The translations under genes and the position numbers were made by a program. DNA of 64,000 nucleotides from an uncultured Clostridia bacterium (lineage in GTDB: Bacteria > Bacillota > Clostridia > TANB77 > CAG-465): positions 42,136 through 106,135 of the forward strand of contig CALXES010000002.1 of the NCBI GenBank assembly GCA_944387385.1. Direction: 5' to 3'. Positions 52,863 through 58,763 of this stretch are shown piece by piece. The notes beneath the pieces are model-generated. The model saw nothing but the letters and a program-made list of their open reading frames with translations, was not told the origin of the DNA and searched no databases. How positions within the stretch are numbered: position 1 is the stretch's first letter; each line of letters starts with the position of its first letter.

Positions 52863-52948
52863 CATTTTTTTAGTTAACATTTAATTTCTCATAAGTTGTA
52901 TTTTTTATATTACTATGATAAAATTTAAAGTATTATAAAGGAGTGTAT

Positions 52949-53584
52949 ATGGAATATTTATTTACGTTTTTAGAGGGAATAGCAAGCTTTATTTCGCCTT
53001 GTCTTCTTCCGATGATACCAATATATATATCATATTTTATTGGAGAAGAAGAAAAAAACAGCACCAAAAAAATAATTAATGCTTTAGGATTTGTAATAGG
53101 GTTTACATTAGTATTTTTAATCCTTTCCATATTTGCAAGTAGTCTAGGAATACTAATTAGTAATAATATAAAATATATAAAAATAGCTTTTGGAATAATA
53201 ATTATATTTTTAGGTTTAAATTATATGGAAATCATAAAGTTAAAGTTTCTTAATAAATATAAAGTATTTAATGCAGACAAAAAAAACTTGAATTTTTTTA
53301 AAGCTTTAATTTTTGGAGTTGTATTCTCAGTTAGTTGGACTCCATGCATCGGAACATTTTTAAGTTCAGCTTTACTTCTTGTAGCTAAACATCAAGATAT
53401 GTTAAAGGGTATTTTACTTATGCTTATCTATTCTATAGGACTTGGAATACCTTTTATTATTTCAGTTGTTTTAATAGAAAAGTTAAAACAGGCTTTTGAT
53501 ATAATAAAGAAAAATTATAATATTATAAAAAAAGTATCAGGAGCTATTTTAATTATTATAGGAATTTACACTATATTTTTTTAA
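52949..53584 (+). CDS. ccdA: cytochrome c-type biogenesis / thiol-disulfide transporter CcdA (DsbD beta domain)
   Basis: Cys in TM1 (SPCLLPMIPIY) and TM4 (TPCIGTFL); six TM helices. Confidence 0.8.
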   Translation: MEYLFTFLEGIASFISPCLLPMIPIYISYFIGEEEKNSTKKIINALGFVIGFTLVFLILSIFASSLGILISNNIKYIKIAFGIIIIFLGLNYMEIIKLKFLNKYKVFNADKKNLNFFKALIFGVVFSVSWTPCIGTFLSSALLLVAKHQDMLKGILLMLIYSIGLGIPFIISVVLIEKLKQAFDIIKKNYNIIKKVSGAILIIIGIYTIFF

Positions 53585-53595
53585 AGGAGATTTAA

Positions 53596-54015
53596 ATGAA
53601 GACTAAAATAAGTATTATTATTATTGTAATTATATTTATAGCCGGATTAATTTTTTTAAACATGTATATGAATAAATCTAAAAACGATACCTCTAGCAGC
53701 AATATTTCTGATGTTACTAGTCAAAATTTTGAAACAGAAGTATTAGAAAGTGATAAAGTTGTACTTGTCGATTTTTATGCTGATTGGTGCGAACCATGTA
53801 AAATATTTTCACCAATTCTTGAGGATATATCAAAAGAGTATGATTTTATAAAAGTTGTAAAAGTAAATATAGATAATGAAACTGATTTAGCCGAGCATTA
53901 TGGTGTTGCTTCGGTTCCAACACTAATTATACTAAAAAATGGTAAGGTTGTTGATAGAAGTGTAGGTGCAATAAGCAAACTGGCATTAAAAAACATGATA
54001 AAACAATTAAATTAA
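53596..54015 (+). CDS. membrane-anchored thioredoxin-family thiol-disulfide oxidoreductase
   Basis: WCEPCK active-site CxxC; N-terminal TM anchor. Confidence 0.85.
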   Translation: MKTKISIIIIVIIFIAGLIFLNMYMNKSKNDTSSSNISDVTSQNFETEVLESDKVVLVDFYADWCEPCKIFSPILEDISKEYDFIKVVKVNIDNETDLAEHYGVASVPTLIILKNGKVVDRSVGAISKLALKNMIKQLN

Positions 54016-54020
54016 ATAAA

Positions 54021-54076
54021 AAGTACACCCACAAATGTTAGAAAAACTAACATTTGGAGGTGTATTTTTATACATG
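54021..54076 (+). mobile_element. solo remnant of an IS150-group (IS3 family) left end (IRL plus orfA RBS/ATG), about 55 bp
   Basis: AAGTACACCCACAAATGTTAGAAAAACTAACATTTGGAGGTGTATTTTTATACATG aligns with the left end of the IS fragment at 58708-58763 (minus strand) with a few mismatches; internal 10-bp hairpin CAAATGTTAG/CTAACATTTG doubles as a terminator between convergent genes. Confidence 0.45.
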
Positions 54077-54081
54077 ATTTT

Positions 54082-55791
54082 TTAGTATCCTAATAATTTT
54101 AAAATAGCTAGTCCTACCTTTTCACCTTTTCCTTCATATGGCCACTCATTTATTGAATATCCCGGATCATCATTTATCTCTATGATTGAATAATCATTTT
54201 TATTTAAATCGTCTATTATTAAGTCAACACCACATACTTTTGCATTAAATGCATTAGCTGCCTTTTCAGACATCTCTTTAAAATATTGTGGTATATCATT
54301 TGTAACATCAAGGCTTTCTCCTCCTGTAGAACAATTTGAGTTTGTTCTCAAAAATACTCTTTCATCTTTTTGTGGTATAGTATCATATGTATAATTAGAT
54401 TTTTTTAAAAATTCTTCAACTGGTTTTTCAATTTTTACAGGAGTTCCAGTAAGAGCATGCCAAGGCTCTTTATTTTTTATATCTATAAGTTCTTTTATTG
54501 TAGATTTTCCATCACCTACAACACTTGCAACTCTTCTATGAGCAACGCTTATACATTTTCCATCTACAACTAAAAATCTATACTCTTTACCTTTTATATA
54601 CTGTTCAACCAACACATCCGAATCAAATTCAAAAGCATATTTTATTGCATTATTTATTTGATCTTTAGTTCCAGGTTTACTAAACACTGTTATACCAGTT
54701 CCCATGTTTGTGTTTCTTGGTTTAATTACTAGCGGCATACTATATAGATCTTTTATTAAATCTTCTATTTCTTCTTGTTCCATATCTTTAGTAAGTAAAA
54801 TAGCATCTGGAACACTTAGCCCCTTTTCTTTCATTATATTTTTTGATACTAATTTATCATCTGTCACTATTGGAAATATATATGAGTCTCTATCTGTTCT
54901 ATTTCCTTCAATTATATATTCTTTATGTCCTTCGTAATCCAACAAAGCAAAACTTGTTGTCTCATTTAGAATTTTATAGTCGATACCTTGTGATAAAGCA
55001 TCTTTAATCAATATAGCTGCTTCTGCTAATAACTTAGGATGATATTTTAATCTATATCTCTCATTATATCCTTCTAACATGTTATTTTTTAAAATGTCTA
55101 ATAGTTCTTTTTTAGTTAACCCTTTTAATTTATTTTCATTTCTATTTAATTGAGTGTTTTCTATAAAATCTTTACATCTTAAAGAGAATATCCTATTTAA
55201 ATCTCTTAAATCTACTTTATTACTCAAGCATGAGAATATTTCCAATATAATATACATTATTTCTTTTAGTTCTATCCCAACTCTATCCATTGGATTTAAT
55301 GTAATATTATTTATTGTTATATTATTATTATATTCAATTTTTATATCACCAAAAATCTCTTTAAAGTGACTAATTCTTTTATTAAGTTTATTAACTATGT
55401 TTTTATACATGTCCTCAATATTATCAGGTAAGATTATATTATTTTTTTCAGCTATTTCATATATCTTAGAATTTAGTGAAAATTCAATTGTTAAAAAACA
55501 TTTTTCTTCATTATCAAAACAAGGACTACTTGAATTCCACAACAGTTCATTTCTTTCAAATAATTCTAAAATAACAATATCTGTAATTTCTTGTAACTTT
55601 ATATAACATTCATGTAAATCTTCACAAATTGGTGTATTTATTAATAATTTCTTATCATTATCTGAAAATGTTATTAATTTATTTTTTAATCTATCACCAA
55701 AAGCTACTGGATGCTCTAGCCTAGATAAATTTCCATTACTATCACACCTTAAACTTTCTTTTTTTATTTTAATATTATAAATATTATTCAT
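54082..55791 (-). CDS. ATP-grasp ligase with uncharacterized 300-aa N-terminal domain (glutathione-synthetase/cyanophycin-synthetase-like C-terminal half)
   Basis: C-terminal half has ATP-grasp hallmarks: PLVIKP, EQYIKGKEYRFLVVDGK, NCSTGGESLDVT, IEINDDPG. Confidence 0.65.
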   Translation of the reverse strand: MNNIYNIKIKKESLRCDSNGNLSRLEHPVAFGDRLKNKLITFSDNDKKLLINTPICEDLHECYIKLQEITDIVILELFERNELLWNSSSPCFDNEEKCFLTIEFSLNSKIYEIAEKNNIILPDNIEDMYKNIVNKLNKRISHFKEIFGDIKIEYNNNITINNITLNPMDRVGIELKEIMYIILEIFSCLSNKVDLRDLNRIFSLRCKDFIENTQLNRNENKLKGLTKKELLDILKNNMLEGYNERYRLKYHPKLLAEAAILIKDALSQGIDYKILNETTSFALLDYEGHKEYIIEGNRTDRDSYIFPIVTDDKLVSKNIMKEKGLSVPDAILLTKDMEQEEIEDLIKDLYSMPLVIKPRNTNMGTGITVFSKPGTKDQINNAIKYAFEFDSDVLVEQYIKGKEYRFLVVDGKCISVAHRRVASVVGDGKSTIKELIDIKNKEPWHALTGTPVKIEKPVEEFLKKSNYTYDTIPQKDERVFLRTNSNCSTGGESLDVTNDIPQYFKEMSEKAANAFNAKVCGVDLIIDDLNKNDYSIIEINDDPGYSINEWPYEGKGEKVGLAILKLLGY

Positions 55792-55810
55792 ATTGATTCT
55801 CTCTCTTTCT

Positions 55811-56800
55811 TTAAACTATAACTAACTCTTCTTCTAAAGATGTTAATACTGGTTCTCTATTATTACCATCAGCCACATTTCCAACAATCAACTCAACATT
55901 TAGTGCATTTATTGGCTTTATTTTATGATATATTATTTTCTCATTTTTTTTATAAGTTATATACTCTCTCTTTTGATGTGTATTATTAATAATTACATTT
56001 TTTAAGTCAAAAAAAAGAGCCTTACTATTACAATTGATATATGAAAATTGAGTTTTAGAATTATTAATTTTCTTATTACCATTCAAGTCAACTTCTACTA
56101 CAAAAGTTGGCGCTTCTGTCATTTCATTTGATCTATTAAGTATCTCATAATATCCATCAATATAAAGTTGAATATTTAATCCTTCACTTTGTAAATCTTT
56201 AACAGCTTTTGATATTGCAATAAGGCTATTTTTGTTTCTACAATCAATCTTACAAATCAACCTTACCTTTTCATGTAAATTAATATCATACGCACCTTTA
56301 ATACTTGACTTGAACAAAATCTTTCCTATATTAGGAATTCTTTTTTCATAATCATTGTTTAATTTAGTTAAGATCCCAGTTATTGTTAAAATATTTTCTT
56401 TTTTTGTAGGAAAATATGGATTTTGTAAAAGTGTATTGTTTTTTTCATACTTTATGGTTGTTACTCCAATAATTTCGTTAATACCATTATGATTTCTAGA
56501 AGCTAATATTACAGGATAATTTGCAATATTATAAATCATTTCATTTAAATTTGGTATTTGTATAAAATCCCTATTTCCAATAAAATTTTTATCATAAAAA
56601 TATATCACTTTAAAAAGCATATCATTTAATGCTTGTTTACCAGTTATAGTCTGAAAAAGATAAAATCTAATATCTGATTCATCTGGATTCTTTTTAATAA
56701 ATTCTTTAGTTTGCACCTCCATTTCCTTATTAAAACAATTAAATATAGTTTGTTTAAAAATTTCGTTGCGCCTTCGCGGCTTTTCTTTTTCCTTTTCCAT
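55811..56800 (-). CDS. hypothetical protein co-transcribed upstream of the ATP-grasp ligase (start placed at MEKEKEKPRRR, RBS GGAGAC)
   Basis: Open frame 19 nt upstream of ligase gene; no family recognized. Confidence 0.45.
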   Translation of the reverse strand: MEKEKEKPRRRNEIFKQTIFNCFNKEMEVQTKEFIKKNPDESDIRFYLFQTITGKQALNDMLFKVIYFYDKNFIGNRDFIQIPNLNEMIYNIANYPVILASRNHNGINEIIGVTTIKYEKNNTLLQNPYFPTKKENILTITGILTKLNNDYEKRIPNIGKILFKSSIKGAYDINLHEKVRLICKIDCRNKNSLIAISKAVKDLQSEGLNIQLYIDGYYEILNRSNEMTEAPTFVVEVDLNGNKKINNSKTQFSYINCNSKALFFDLKNVIINNTHQKREYITYKKNEKIIYHKIKPINALNVELIVGNVADGNNREPVLTSLEEELVIV

Positions 56801-56833
56801 AAAAAGTCTCCATTTCTGTCGCACTGCGACTAA

Positions 56834-56857
56834 CATAATATACTACAGTATATTATG
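56834..56857. promoter_or_regulatory. candidate operator: inverted repeat CATAATATACT-AC-AGTATATTATG at the 5' end of the ATP-grasp operon
   Basis: 11-bp perfect arms, 2-nt spacer; lies 34 nt upstream of the preferred start and next to a GTCGCACTGCGAC 5'-UTR hairpin (56818-56830). Confidence 0.35.
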
Positions 56858-57017
56858 AGAATATTTTAGTGCTTTTTTATTAATATGTCAATAGATTTTT
56901 TAAATATTTTTTAACTTTTAAATTACCTTGATTTTAGTATTTACATCAAATCTTAATTACATAAATATTCGAATATATTTATACTACATAATTTTATATT
57001 ATTCATTAAATTTTGAC

Positions 57018-57449
57018 TTAATTTGAAACAAATGTCTCAACAAAATTTCCATATTTTTCATATTTAAGTCTATTAATTCCTATATCTACTTTATACATTT
57101 GTATGTAAGAATATGTATTATCTTGATTTTCTTTAGTAACAGTCAATATTTTTTCCTTTTTATTATATTTTATAGATAAAAACATTTTTTCTTGATCCGC
57201 TTTATTATTATCAAATCTAACTAATAACGAATCATCTTTAAAATCTTCTCCTGTAACAAAATTTTTTTGTGCACTATTTTTTAAATTTATATTTTCATCT
57301 TCATCACAAACCTCATTAAATATTTGTGTTAAAATTTCAATTTGATTATTTTCACTACGCAAAACTAAATATCTATATAAAAAAATCGCTCCAACCATAA
57401 TAGATATTATAACTATAAAACTTATAAAAAAATATTTCTTTTTAAACAT
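57018..57449 (-). CDS. hypothetical membrane-anchored protein
   Basis: N-terminal TM helix (FFISFIVIISIMVGAIFLY). Confidence 0.45.
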   Translation of the reverse strand: MFKKKYFFISFIVIISIMVGAIFLYRYLVLRSENNQIEILTQIFNEVCDEDENINLKNSAQKNFVTGEDFKDDSLLVRFDNNKADQEKMFLSIKYNKKEKILTVTKENQDNTYSYIQMYKVDIGINRLKYEKYGNFVETFVSN

Positions 57450-57556: not shown

Positions 57557-58435
57557 TTATAATCCTGGCATTCCCATTCTATATTGACCTCTTGTTTGTA
57601 GTCCACCAATACCGCTTATCCCTTCTCTAGTATTAGAAATTATATTTTCCAATGAAACAAATTCATTTACTGAGGTATAAGCTACATTTTCTGCAACAAT
57701 TATTGGATCCATCATATCAATTAATACTCTTTTAGGAGCACTAGCAAAGTTAGCTCCAGCAGATATTATTGCTTCATAATAACTTTGACAAGCTCCTGCA
57801 AATATAACTAAGTTATCTAAATTATGTTCATATCGTCTAGCTTCTAAAACTGATTGAACAAAGTATTTAGAATTTTTATAATTATCTATATTATATATAT
57901 CATTTCTTCTTTTTATAAACGCATCATGTCCAGTTAAAACCAAAATTTCAGGTTTATATTTTTGAAGTAAATTATACACTTGTTTATACTGCTCGTTTTC
58001 TTCTATATTAAAAACATATGCAGTAATCCCCATTTTTTTATAGATATCTCTACATTGCCTACAATACTCCTCATCTCCATCAAGATGTAAAGTTCTTCCT
58101 GGTCTTTTATATGTTTTTTCTTTTTGATACATGTTATAATTTATATTTTCTCTATAAAAGTTATTGTTATTATACTTTTTATTCTTTATATTATTATATG
58201 ATCTATCTAACCTAACTCTTCTAGATTTTTCAATATTTTTCAGTCTTGCTTCTAGCTCTTGCTTTGAGACTAACTTCAAATCATATTCATATGCATCAGC
58301 TAAAATCCTAACATTAATACCTATTAAATCAACTATTCCATTAGGATGTATTGCAGTAATCTTAAATAAAACATCATAGTTATATGACTTTCTTGCAACG
58401 ATATCTCCAACCTTAAAATTTGACAAGTTCATCAC
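57557..58435 (-). CDS. yabG: sporulation-specific protease YabG
   Basis: N-terminus FKVGDIVARKSYNYDVLFKITAI matches B. subtilis YabG (FKIGDIVARKSYGxDVLFKI); 292 aa. Confidence 0.85.
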   Translation of the reverse strand: MMNLSNFKVGDIVARKSYNYDVLFKITAIHPNGIVDLIGINVRILADAYEYDLKLVSKQELEARLKNIEKSRRVRLDRSYNNIKNKKYNNNNFYRENINYNMYQKEKTYKRPGRTLHLDGDEEYCRQCRDIYKKMGITAYVFNIEENEQYKQVYNLLQKYKPEILVLTGHDAFIKRRNDIYNIDNYKNSKYFVQSVLEARRYEHNLDNLVIFAGACQSYYEAIISAGANFASAPKRVLIDMMDPIIVAENVAYTSVNEFVSLENIISNTREGISGIGGLQTRGQYRMGMPGL

Positions 58436-58510: not shown

Positions 58511-58763
58511 TTATGCTACACTAATATTAGGAGGTAAAATATTTCTAATTAAACCTTTAGCACCATGTTCTTTATATTTTCTTACCCATTTTAATACAGT
58601 ATATTCACTTTTAATGTTAAAGTGTTTAGCTGTATCTAAATATCCATAATGTTCATTTATACAATATTCAACTACTTTGAGTTTAAATTCATATGAATAT
58701 TTACTCATAAAAAATACACCTCCAAACATTAGATTTTTTGTCTAACATTTGGGGTGCACTTCA
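58511..58763 (-). mobile_element. truncated IS150-group (IS3 family) element: left inverted repeat plus 5' fragment of orfA (HTH transposase N-terminus, about 65 codons)
   Basis: IRL begins TGAAGTGCACCCCAAATG (IS150-like TG...TGCACCC) at 58763; RBS GGAGGTG then MSKYSYEFKLKVVEYCINEHYGYLDTAKHFNI...LKWVRKYKEHGAKGL; frame ends after 72 aa with no orfB; inserted 27 bp downstream of the rpsR stop. Confidence 0.6.

Follow-up and report, generated by a model that had tools for sequence, protein, structure and literature searches.

We report a two-gene operon on the minus strand of a 64-kb stretch of DNA from an uncultured Clostridia bacterium (the whole stretch that was analysed, positions 1-64000, is called the window below). 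The operon encodes a 569-amino-acid (aa) ATP-grasp ligase and, upstream of it, a 329-aa partner with a predicted GNAT fold. We regard the chances as about even that the two proteins together use ATP and acyl-coenzyme A (CoA) to make a small peptide that is N-acylated, most likely N-acetylated. By analogy with the known enzyme Ngg, an N-acyl dipeptide would be the most likely product class. The partner would move an acyl group from acyl-CoA onto the alpha-amine of an amino acid, the ligase would phosphorylate the free alpha-carboxylate of this N-blocked amino acid, and it would then link this activated, N-blocked residue with a second amino acid through the amine of the latter. The reading is carried by the anatomy and the linkage of the two genes, by both folds, by a complete set of ATP-grasp catalytic residues, by CoA-type motifs in the GNAT protein, by the loss of metal ligands in a remnant domain of the ligase and by a new loop at its substrate site.

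Operon anatomy and the ligase

The two open reading frames (ORFs) lie at 54082..55791 (ligase, 569 aa) and 55811..56836 (partner), with 19 nt between the genes. The partner almost certainly starts at the ATG at 56800 instead of the ORF start at 56836, because a Shine-Dalgarno sequence GGAG (56808..56811, minus strand), read directly in the sequence, lies 7 nt 5' of this ATG and because its homologs, when aligned with the window protein, start at an equivalent MKKKxKPR. The partner gene is hence placed at 55811..56800 (minus strand), and the resulting 329 aa agree with the length of about 330 aa given in the original prediction, a short note made from the letters of the window alone. Upstream, a promoter-like site of the sigma-A/sigma-70 type, TTGACA-17 nt-TAAAAT (56863..56891, minus strand), was recognised by its consensus match only (11 of 12 positions). 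It is the best match of the region and is intergenic, 92 nt 5' of the ATG at 56800. At 7 of 39 loci the partner has a site of this type with at least 11 of 12 positions upstream, compared with 2% of shuffles. Directly after the ligase stop we found an intrinsic-terminator-like hairpin followed by a U-run (54016..54071, minus strand), for which RNA folding gave -26.3 kcal/mol and z = -5.84; none of 200 shuffles folded equally well. Since the hairpin sits in the convergent gap shared with a thioredoxin (trx) gene, it is probably bidirectional. The 19-nt spacer, the promoter-like site and the terminator-like hairpin thus mark the two genes as a compact bicistronic operon bounded by a putative promoter and terminator, in agreement with the two-gene operon that the original prediction had proposed at 54082-56800. 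Rfam at the gathering threshold detected no riboswitch or T-box leader, either in the window or at 8 related loci.

The C-terminal domain of the ligase (~aa 246-569 plus stop, 54082..55056, minus strand) is predicted to be an ATP-grasp peptide ligase of the GshF/CphA type, judging from the GshAB profile, the match to 3ln6 and the catalytic residues. Several Pfam ATP-grasp models match residues 260-546, and the top NCBIfam model is bifunctional GshAB (NF002688, 354.1 bits over aa 233-567, cut-off 425). The second GshAB model, TIGR01435, gave 218.5 bits against a cut-off of 656, followed by the cyanophycin synthetase models with about 220 bits against cut-offs of 850-877 (residues 258-567) and by Ngg TIGR03103 with 156 bits against 569 (residues 253-546, its ATP-grasp part only). 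RimK, which had been suggested as a profile to compare, does match, but TIGR00768 gave 55.3 bits, far under its cut-off of 143.4, and Pfam RimK gave 51 bits. The closest solved structures found by a sequence search of the PDB are those of GshF, 3LN6 (E = 4e-63) and 3LN7 (E = 3e-60). Pfam, NCBIfam and PDB matches therefore agree on the C-terminal ATP-grasp assignment that had been made from the sequence. The ATP-grasp half is ~39% identical to that of GshF with all catalytic residues kept. Indeed, K357, E396, R405, D523, E538 and N540 are present in 59 of 59 sequences of the ligase family, so that this half is predicted to be catalytically intact.

We next consider the residues that position the substrates, for which the alignment of CphA1, GshF and ligase recovers the published CphA1 numbering. 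CphA1 Arg309 stabilises the acyl-phosphate and Gly456 the tetrahedral intermediate (PMC9427784); their equivalents R405 and G544 are found in 59/59 members, and GshF has Leu/Met at the position of the glycine, as read from the alignments. CphA1 Glu215, which recognises the cyanophycin primer and is Leu in GshF (PMC9427784), corresponds to I308, again 59/59. The P-loop residue His267 of CphA1, Tyr/Phe in GshF (PMC9427784), is replaced by Tyr in 49 members, Lys in 4, Met in 3 and Gln in 3, and by M363 in the window ligase. Finally, CphA1 Arg458 binds the incoming Asp, while Met/Tyr in GshF form the pocket for the incoming glycine (PMC9427784). At this position all 59 ligases carry Ser (S546). 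It is part of the loop PGYSINEWPYEG (P543 to residue 554), which is invariant across the family and unlike both P-[LM]-M-[YM]-M-H of GshF and P-G-F-R-M-H of CphA1. The ligase chemistry thus appears conserved and the nucleophile pocket new. Because this invariant, family-specific loop with Ser546 differs from GshF and CphA1, the product is probably neither glutathione nor cyanophycin. Residue 363, Met in the window ligase, is Lys or Gln in the proteins nearest to it; since it deviates in this way, the subclade of the window may differ in catalysis or in substrate.

The N-terminal half had been described as a novel domain, which does not hold. This domain (~aa 1-245, 55057..55791, minus strand) is, to judge from PF04262, hhalign and model superposition, a reduced remnant of a gamma-glutamylcysteine-ligase (GCL) domain. 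The Pfam model PF04262 (Glu_cys_ligase) matches residues 9-97 with 53 bits against a cut-off of 27, covering only positions 20-106 of the 372 of the profile. With hhalign, residues 8-93 of the ligase family map to E. coli GshA 25-108 at 94% probability, and nothing maps beyond. The AlphaFold model of the ligase has a pLDDT (predicted local distance difference test) of 85.5 overall and of ~90 in the N-domain, so that the structure prediction which had been recommended for this domain gives a GshF-like arrangement. Superposed as a whole on GshF 3ln6/3ln7, the model gives a template-modelling (TM) score TMq of 0.74/0.72 over ~735 columns (737 for 3ln6). Because the ATP-grasp half alone gives a TMq of ~0.58 at most, the N-domain must match as well, and in the arrangement of GshF.

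What is left of the domain does not look like a GCL active site. The glutamates E27, E29 and E67 of GshA are reportedly Mg2+ ligands. Their equivalents in the window ligase are K10, E12 and L50, and Glu is found at these positions in 39, 41 and 7 of the 59 family members. Mean identity to the window ligase over these members is 32% for the N-half and 67% for the C-half, and the median ratio of non-synonymous to synonymous rates (dN/dS), calculated from 18 close locus pairs, amounts to 0.29 in the N-half as against 0.07 in the C-half. Together with the partner (0.18), all three modules are under purifying selection. The N-domain is hence best described as a cut-down GCL domain, a remnant that appears to be maintained after the catalytic constraint was lost. 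Because it is kept under selection without this constraint, a scaffold is the simplest reading of it.

Compared with GshF (also named GshAB; 3LN6, 3LN7; NF002688, TIGR01435), the ligase keeps the two-domain layout and domain arrangement (TMq 0.72-0.74), the first ~100 residues of the GCL domain in a still recognisable form and, in most members, the P-loop Tyr, together with a hydrophobic residue at the CphA1 E215 position (PMC9427784). It differs in being ~190 residues shorter, in the Mg-ligand glutamates, which are not conserved, in scores below both cut-offs and in the invariant Ser within the new invariant loop instead of Tyr/Met. An assignment to GshAB, which the original prediction had named as speaking against itself, therefore applies in half: the protein would descend from GshAB, but it scores below the cut-offs and is without the GCL catalytic core. 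With cyanophycin synthetases (CphA1/CphA2; PDB 7WAC, 7LG5, 7TA5, 8FXH) it shares a homologous ATP-grasp G domain (E = 1e-36; TMq 0.44-0.50) and the conserved pairs R309/R405 and G456/G544. It lacks the CphA N domain and the Mur-ligase-like M domain (no Mur_ligase Pfam match), and in the family Tyr/Met, Ile and Ser take the places of H267, E215 and R458.

The GNAT-fold partner

The partner gave no Pfam, NCBIfam (E <= 0.1) or PDB sequence match, which includes the curated GNAT models (e.g. PF00583, PF13508). A word-index search yielded 115 homologs, all of ~335 aa and either unnamed or called "hypothetical". When the family profile was compared with 1.84 billion representative proteins, it matched 95, all of its own family, and among these 95 representatives there was no fusion of partner to ligase. 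Three matches of odd length (P0271, P0231, P0233) were considered as informative fusions and set aside, being uninformative singletons on ~1-kb contigs.

The structure prediction gave a clear answer. The AlphaFold model, built from a 91-sequence alignment, has a pLDDT of 90.8 and a predicted TM score (pTM) of 0.90. With this model, Foldseek returned a probability of 1.0 to dozens of N-acetyltransferases, at a TM score of 0.55-0.62 on the target, and 47 PDB matches at E <= 1e-3; the matches listed are all GNAT-fold acyltransferases or close variants (Mom, LasI, CBP). The top matches are amino-acid N-alpha-acetyltransferases (phosphinothricin PAT 5dwn/9igl, ArsN 5jtf, PA4866 2j8m) and RimI, with the RimI-type 4j3g as the best single one, in a ranking so flat (E 1e-5 to 1e-3) that it has no power to separate GNAT subtypes. 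In the model, the order of elements is that of the GNAT fold, beta1-alpha1-alpha2-beta2-4-alpha3-beta5-alpha4-beta6-7. A long N-terminal helix precedes the GNAT core (~44-238), which is followed by a ~70-aa alpha/beta extension and a conserved GNxRxP tail. The protein, called unassignable in the original prediction, is thus an orphan with respect to sequence families, but by structure prediction it is clearly a GNAT-fold protein.

The cofactor motifs support its class as well. The GNAT motif A, (Q/R)-x-x-G-x-(G/A), binds the pyrophosphate of CoA. The partner family carries [R/K]154-I-x-G157-I-G159 at the beta4-alpha3 junction, right before the helix 158-176, with [R/K]154 in 88, G157 in 83 and G159 in all of the 91 sequences. 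A second motif, D186-C-R-N189-x-x-S192, lies at beta5-alpha4 and is invariant or nearly so in the same alignment. Because the GNAT fold is combined with motif A and the D-C-R-N motif in the correct structural positions, the model supports the assignment of the partner as an acyl-CoA-dependent transferase. The Cys of D-C-R-N (residues 186-189; 89 of 91 sequences) is located at the end of beta5, beside the acyl-group site of the GNAT fold, and an invariant Arg lies in the otherwise unstructured G-N-x-R-x-P tail (residues 312-317); either residue could be catalytic or be in contact with the ligase.

With the amino-acid N-acetyltransferases of the GNAT fold (phosphinothricin/ArsN/MddA-PA4866; RimI) the partner has the fold and the cofactor motifs A and B in common. 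No sequence-level relationship to them was detected, even with the family profile against the 1.84 billion proteins, and the long N-terminal helix, the ~70-aa C-terminal subdomain, the GNxRxP tail and the D-C-R-N motif are additions of the partner. We consequently define two unannotated families, a GNAT family and a ligase family with at least 469 members in the database, neither of which is covered by curated models.

Linkage, proposed function and competing explanations

We then analysed the neighbourhood of the partner with one genome per species, which gave 38 loci from uncultured Clostridia (many of them labelled Candidatus Scatovivens) and one Bacilli metagenome-assembled genome (MAG). 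The ligase gene lies directly 3' of the partner gene, on the same strand, in 33 of the 38. Ligase-anchored look-ups in different subclades showed the same in the opposite direction: all three had a Pfam-less gene of 333-339 aa immediately upstream. The pairwise divergences of partner and ligase correlate (r = 0.86). Clustering of all flanking ORFs of these loci gave no third family common to more than 12. Candidates for a conserved third gene (an ABC-2 transporter with an auxiliary protein, VanW, a TrmB-like methyltransferase, a flavoprotein and purA/purB) occur in at most 12 loci and resemble clade synteny.

Two other arrangements connect the GNAT family with peptide bonds. In a distant branch (~26-31% identity), a PepD-type M20 dipeptidase replaces the ligase at five of five independent loci (L042 6001-8621; L036 466-2857; L037 165-2649; L051 496-3281; L053 1156-3616), the frames often overlapping or abutting. 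Three of these loci were scanned against NCBIfam, where TIGR01893 gave 334-354 bits against a cut-off of 344. In another lineage (L054 2206-7041), the GNAT gene (368 aa) is found between two ligase genes (600 and 618 aa), and both ligases have the GCL remnant and the PGYS[IL]NEWPYEG loop. The GNAT family is therefore found repeatedly beside enzymes that form or cleave dipeptide bonds, and the dipeptidase pairing and the ligase-GNAT-ligase lineage tie it to amino-acid and dipeptide chemistry.

The N-acyl dipeptide model follows from the linkage with the GNAT gene, from the closest families of the ligase, which activate N-blocked residues, and from the precedent of Ngg. GshF, CphA1 and Ngg all phosphorylate the alpha-carboxylate of an N-blocked residue and then add an amino acid, the activated substrates being gamma-Glu-Cys (GshF), the C-terminal backbone carboxylate of the cyanophycin chain (CphA1) and N-acetyl-Gln (Ngg) (PMC9427784, PMC8070244). 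In Ngg (TIGR03103), of the asnO-ngg osmoprotectant pathway, a GNAT activity and an ATP-grasp ligase yield an N-acetyl dipeptide: Gln is acetylated and a second Gln is then ligated (PMC8070244, citing Sagot et al. 2010). Residues 253-546 of our ligase are homologous to the ATP-grasp module of Ngg (156 bits). Ngg is different in that both parts, the GNAT at the N-terminus and the ATP-grasp part at the C-terminus, are fused in one polypeptide, as compared to two separate genes here. The partner has no sequence similarity to the GNAT of Ngg that NCBIfam or Pfam models could detect. Moreover, Ngg is without the GCL remnant that the ligase carries, and no asnO-type amidotransferase gene is among the conserved neighbours of our pair.

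In the scheme that we propose, the GCL domain of a GshF ancestor would have been cut to a non-catalytic scaffold of ~245 residues, and the separate GNAT protein would have taken over the N-blocking role that gamma-glutamylation has in GshF. That both enzymes share one metabolite is an inference, as are the order in which they act, the donor of the acyl group, and the two amino acids and the product. The ligase gene is preceded by a GNAT gene in the three ligase-anchored look-ups, and we know of no GshF that needs such a gene. The pair is then a variant of the known GNAT plus ATP-grasp route of peptide synthesis, unusual in its evolutionary path through a gutted GshF and in its orphan GNAT. In the literature we found no description of a truncated GshF or of a GshF with a GNAT gene. 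The original prediction had proposed a small-peptide synthetase module. This part of it is supported, since the ligase is an ATP-grasp enzyme of the GshF/cyanophycin-synthetase type with its catalytic residues intact, and since its linkage to the partner is both close and widespread.

Several observations weigh against such a function. In the window partner itself, the first Gly of motif A is replaced by Asn, as it is in 7 of the 91 sequences. Neither an asnO-like nor an export gene was found among the conserved neighbours at the 38 loci, and every homolog of the pair comes from a metagenome or a MAG. In the closest relatives of the window (L001, L002 and L048-50), the site reads yabG-partner-rpsT without a ligase gene, so that the GNAT protein apparently functions or persists in these sister lineages without an adjacent ligase. 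Finally, a GNAT whose substrates are dipeptides, or one that renders a liberated amino acid harmless, would account for the pairing with a dipeptidase just as well.

Among other explanations, the ligase could be a monofunctional glutathione synthetase, a GshF minus its GCL, that joins gamma-Glu-Cys from elsewhere to Gly, the GNAT protein being unrelated or a later modifier of the thiol. Its best matches in sequence and structure are indeed GshF (NF002688 354 bits; 3ln6 TMq 0.74), the P-loop Tyr of 49 of the 59 members is GshF-like (PMC9427784), I308 resembles the Leu of GshF rather than the Glu of CphA1, and the pair adjoins ccdA-trx here and a desulfoferrodoxin/SufD redox neighbourhood at locus L003. 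We nevertheless think this unlikely: the position for the incoming amino acid is an invariant Ser in a different invariant loop instead of Tyr/Met, both GshAB cut-offs are missed (354 < 425; 218 < 656), the redox neighbourhood is present in only 2 of ~35 loci, and the near-obligate linkage to a GNAT gene would be left unexplained. A related idea, that the pair makes an undescribed low-molecular-weight thiol or related protective peptide of these strictly anaerobic gut Clostridia, is very doubtful. The GNAT protein would supply an N-blocked amino acid (e.g. N-acetyl-cysteine) and the ATP-grasp enzyme would add a residue chosen by the PGYSINEWPYEG loop, giving a glutathione surrogate with acetyl in place of gamma-glutamyl. 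The sole hints are the ccdA-thioredoxin genes beside the window pair and the Crp/Fnr-CcdA-Trx-desulfoferrodoxin-...-SufD island of L003. The GNAT protein might also serve for detoxification or self-resistance in an antimetabolite system, as an acetyltransferase of the phosphinothricin/tabtoxin/arsinothricin type; the ligase would then build, and PepD elsewhere open, a "Trojan-horse" dipeptide with a toxic amino acid. Resistance acetyltransferases are the top fold matches (PAT 5dwn/9igl, ArsN 5jtf, PA4866 2j8m), the GNAT gene persists alone in some lineages, and the GNAT plus dipeptidase of the distant branch would suit a cleavage followed by acetylation of the warhead. However, the flat Foldseek ranking does not discriminate GNAT subtypes, and at the 38 loci the pair has no conserved neighbours for warhead biosynthesis, export or immunity. 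The pair also lies among housekeeping genes in many species with a vertical-looking inheritance (r = 0.86), not in the patchy manner of antibiotic clusters, and we accord this explanation only a small probability.

Protein modification is less probable again. A RimK-like ATP-grasp enzyme would extend the C-terminus of a protein, for instance a spore-coat or ribosomal protein, and a RimI-like GNAT would acetylate an N-terminus. The RimI-type 4j3g as best single fold match, the 51 bits of Pfam RimK, the position of the window pair near yabG and rpsF-ssb-rpsR, and the order CotH-VTC-DUF4956-YabG-GNAT in the sister lineage L048 could be cited for it. Yet TIGR00768, with 55 bits against 143, stays far under the scores of GshAB, CphA and Ngg, only the closest relatives share the yabG and rps neighbourhood, and the promoter is sigma-A-like. 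The spore-coat variant goes back to the original prediction, which had pointed to YheC/YheD-type ligases and to the adjacent yabG. A YheC/YheD-type enzyme is not indicated: hidden Markov model searches gave no match to PF14398 (ATPgrasp_YheCD) at E <= 0.1, while PF14397 and other ATP-grasp models do match. The gene yabG is indeed nearby (57557..58435), but an unrelated 143-aa ORF lies between it and the pair. As a conserved sporulation context it fails, because of more than 30 loci it is present only in the window, L001, L002 and L048-50; at the others, housekeeping genes without relation to it take its place as neighbours. A crude regular-expression test of the partner's upstream regions at 39 loci showed no enrichment of consensus patterns for sigma-E/K/G/F, with three found where about two are expected. 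Since such regulatory tests are crude, we grade a role in sporulation as unsupported by these data rather than excluded. The least likely of the explanations is that the GNAT-fold protein is a peptide ligase that uses aminoacyl-tRNA (Fem, Leu/Phe-transferase or MprF type), so that two peptide-bond formers in one operon would give a tripeptide. Ligases of this kind with a GNAT fold are well known and are found together with other ligases (PMC2922099), the ~330 aa of the partner are FemX-like, and the distant homolog at L042/L043 has a divergent class-II aminoacyl-tRNA synthetase gene upstream. Motif A for the CoA pyrophosphate, however, is conserved at its canonical position, the C-terminal extension is too small for a second GNAT domain, and the 50 fold matches listed are all acyl-CoA-type GNATs or close variants, with no Fem or Leu/Phe-transferase among them.

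Should the synthesis of an N-acyl peptide be correct, it would mean that a bifunctional GshF was dismantled in evolution, with one catalytic domain decayed to a scaffold and the N-blocking of the first amino acid passed on to an unrelated, separately encoded enzyme. It would also add a new small peptide from gut Clostridia that are abundant but have not been cultured. The GNAT family, which neither Pfam nor NCBIfam recognises, is now defined, and the members of the ligase family could easily be misnamed glutathione or cyanophycin synthetase by automated annotation. Practical consequences will be modest until the product is identified.

Neighbouring genes in the window and at related loci

The window has a G+C content of ~25%, and the genes that flank the pair are 78-96% identical at the protein level to those of MAGs labelled "uncultured Clostridia". 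At the corresponding site of L001 (9032-11316), L002 and L048-L050, the partner is ~57% identical to that of the window, as compared with 78-96% for the flanking genes. This site is also without the 143-aa ORF and ccdA-trx. In L048-50, CotH-VTC-DUF4956-YabG is found upstream of the partner.

A CcdA-like thiol-disulfide transporter and a membrane-anchored thioredoxin (ccdA-trx, 52943-54015, plus strand) are encoded convergently to the ligase. At L003 (6560-13693), ccdA-trx occurs with a Crp/Fnr regulator, a desulfoferrodoxin and an MnmL/YtqA radical-SAM gene just upstream of partner and ligase, and SufD follows downstream. The window and L003 are the only two of ~35 loci with such a redox neighbourhood, which may point to an association. 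In L051/L052 an additional 94-aa ORF is found between the GNAT and dipeptidase genes, and in L054 a radical-SAM gene and a StiP/PELOTA_1 gene come after ligase-GNAT-ligase.

With Rfam at the gathering threshold, no RNA family (tRNA, ribosomal-protein leader or riboswitch) was detected anywhere in the window, positions 1-64000, despite several ribosomal-protein genes (rpsT, rpsF, rpsR). The ORF of 143 aa between yabG and the partner (57018-57449, minus strand) has an N-terminal hydrophobic segment and gave no family match; its sole NCBIfam match (E = 0.07) is meaningless. Between yabG and rpsR, in the vicinity of rpsF-ssb-rpsR, a further ORF of 72 aa (MSKYSYEFKLKVVEYC...HGAKGL; 58511-58729, minus strand) resembles the N-terminal helix-turn-helix part of the OrfA transposase of the IS3 family, and we take it to be a putative remnant of an insertion sequence.

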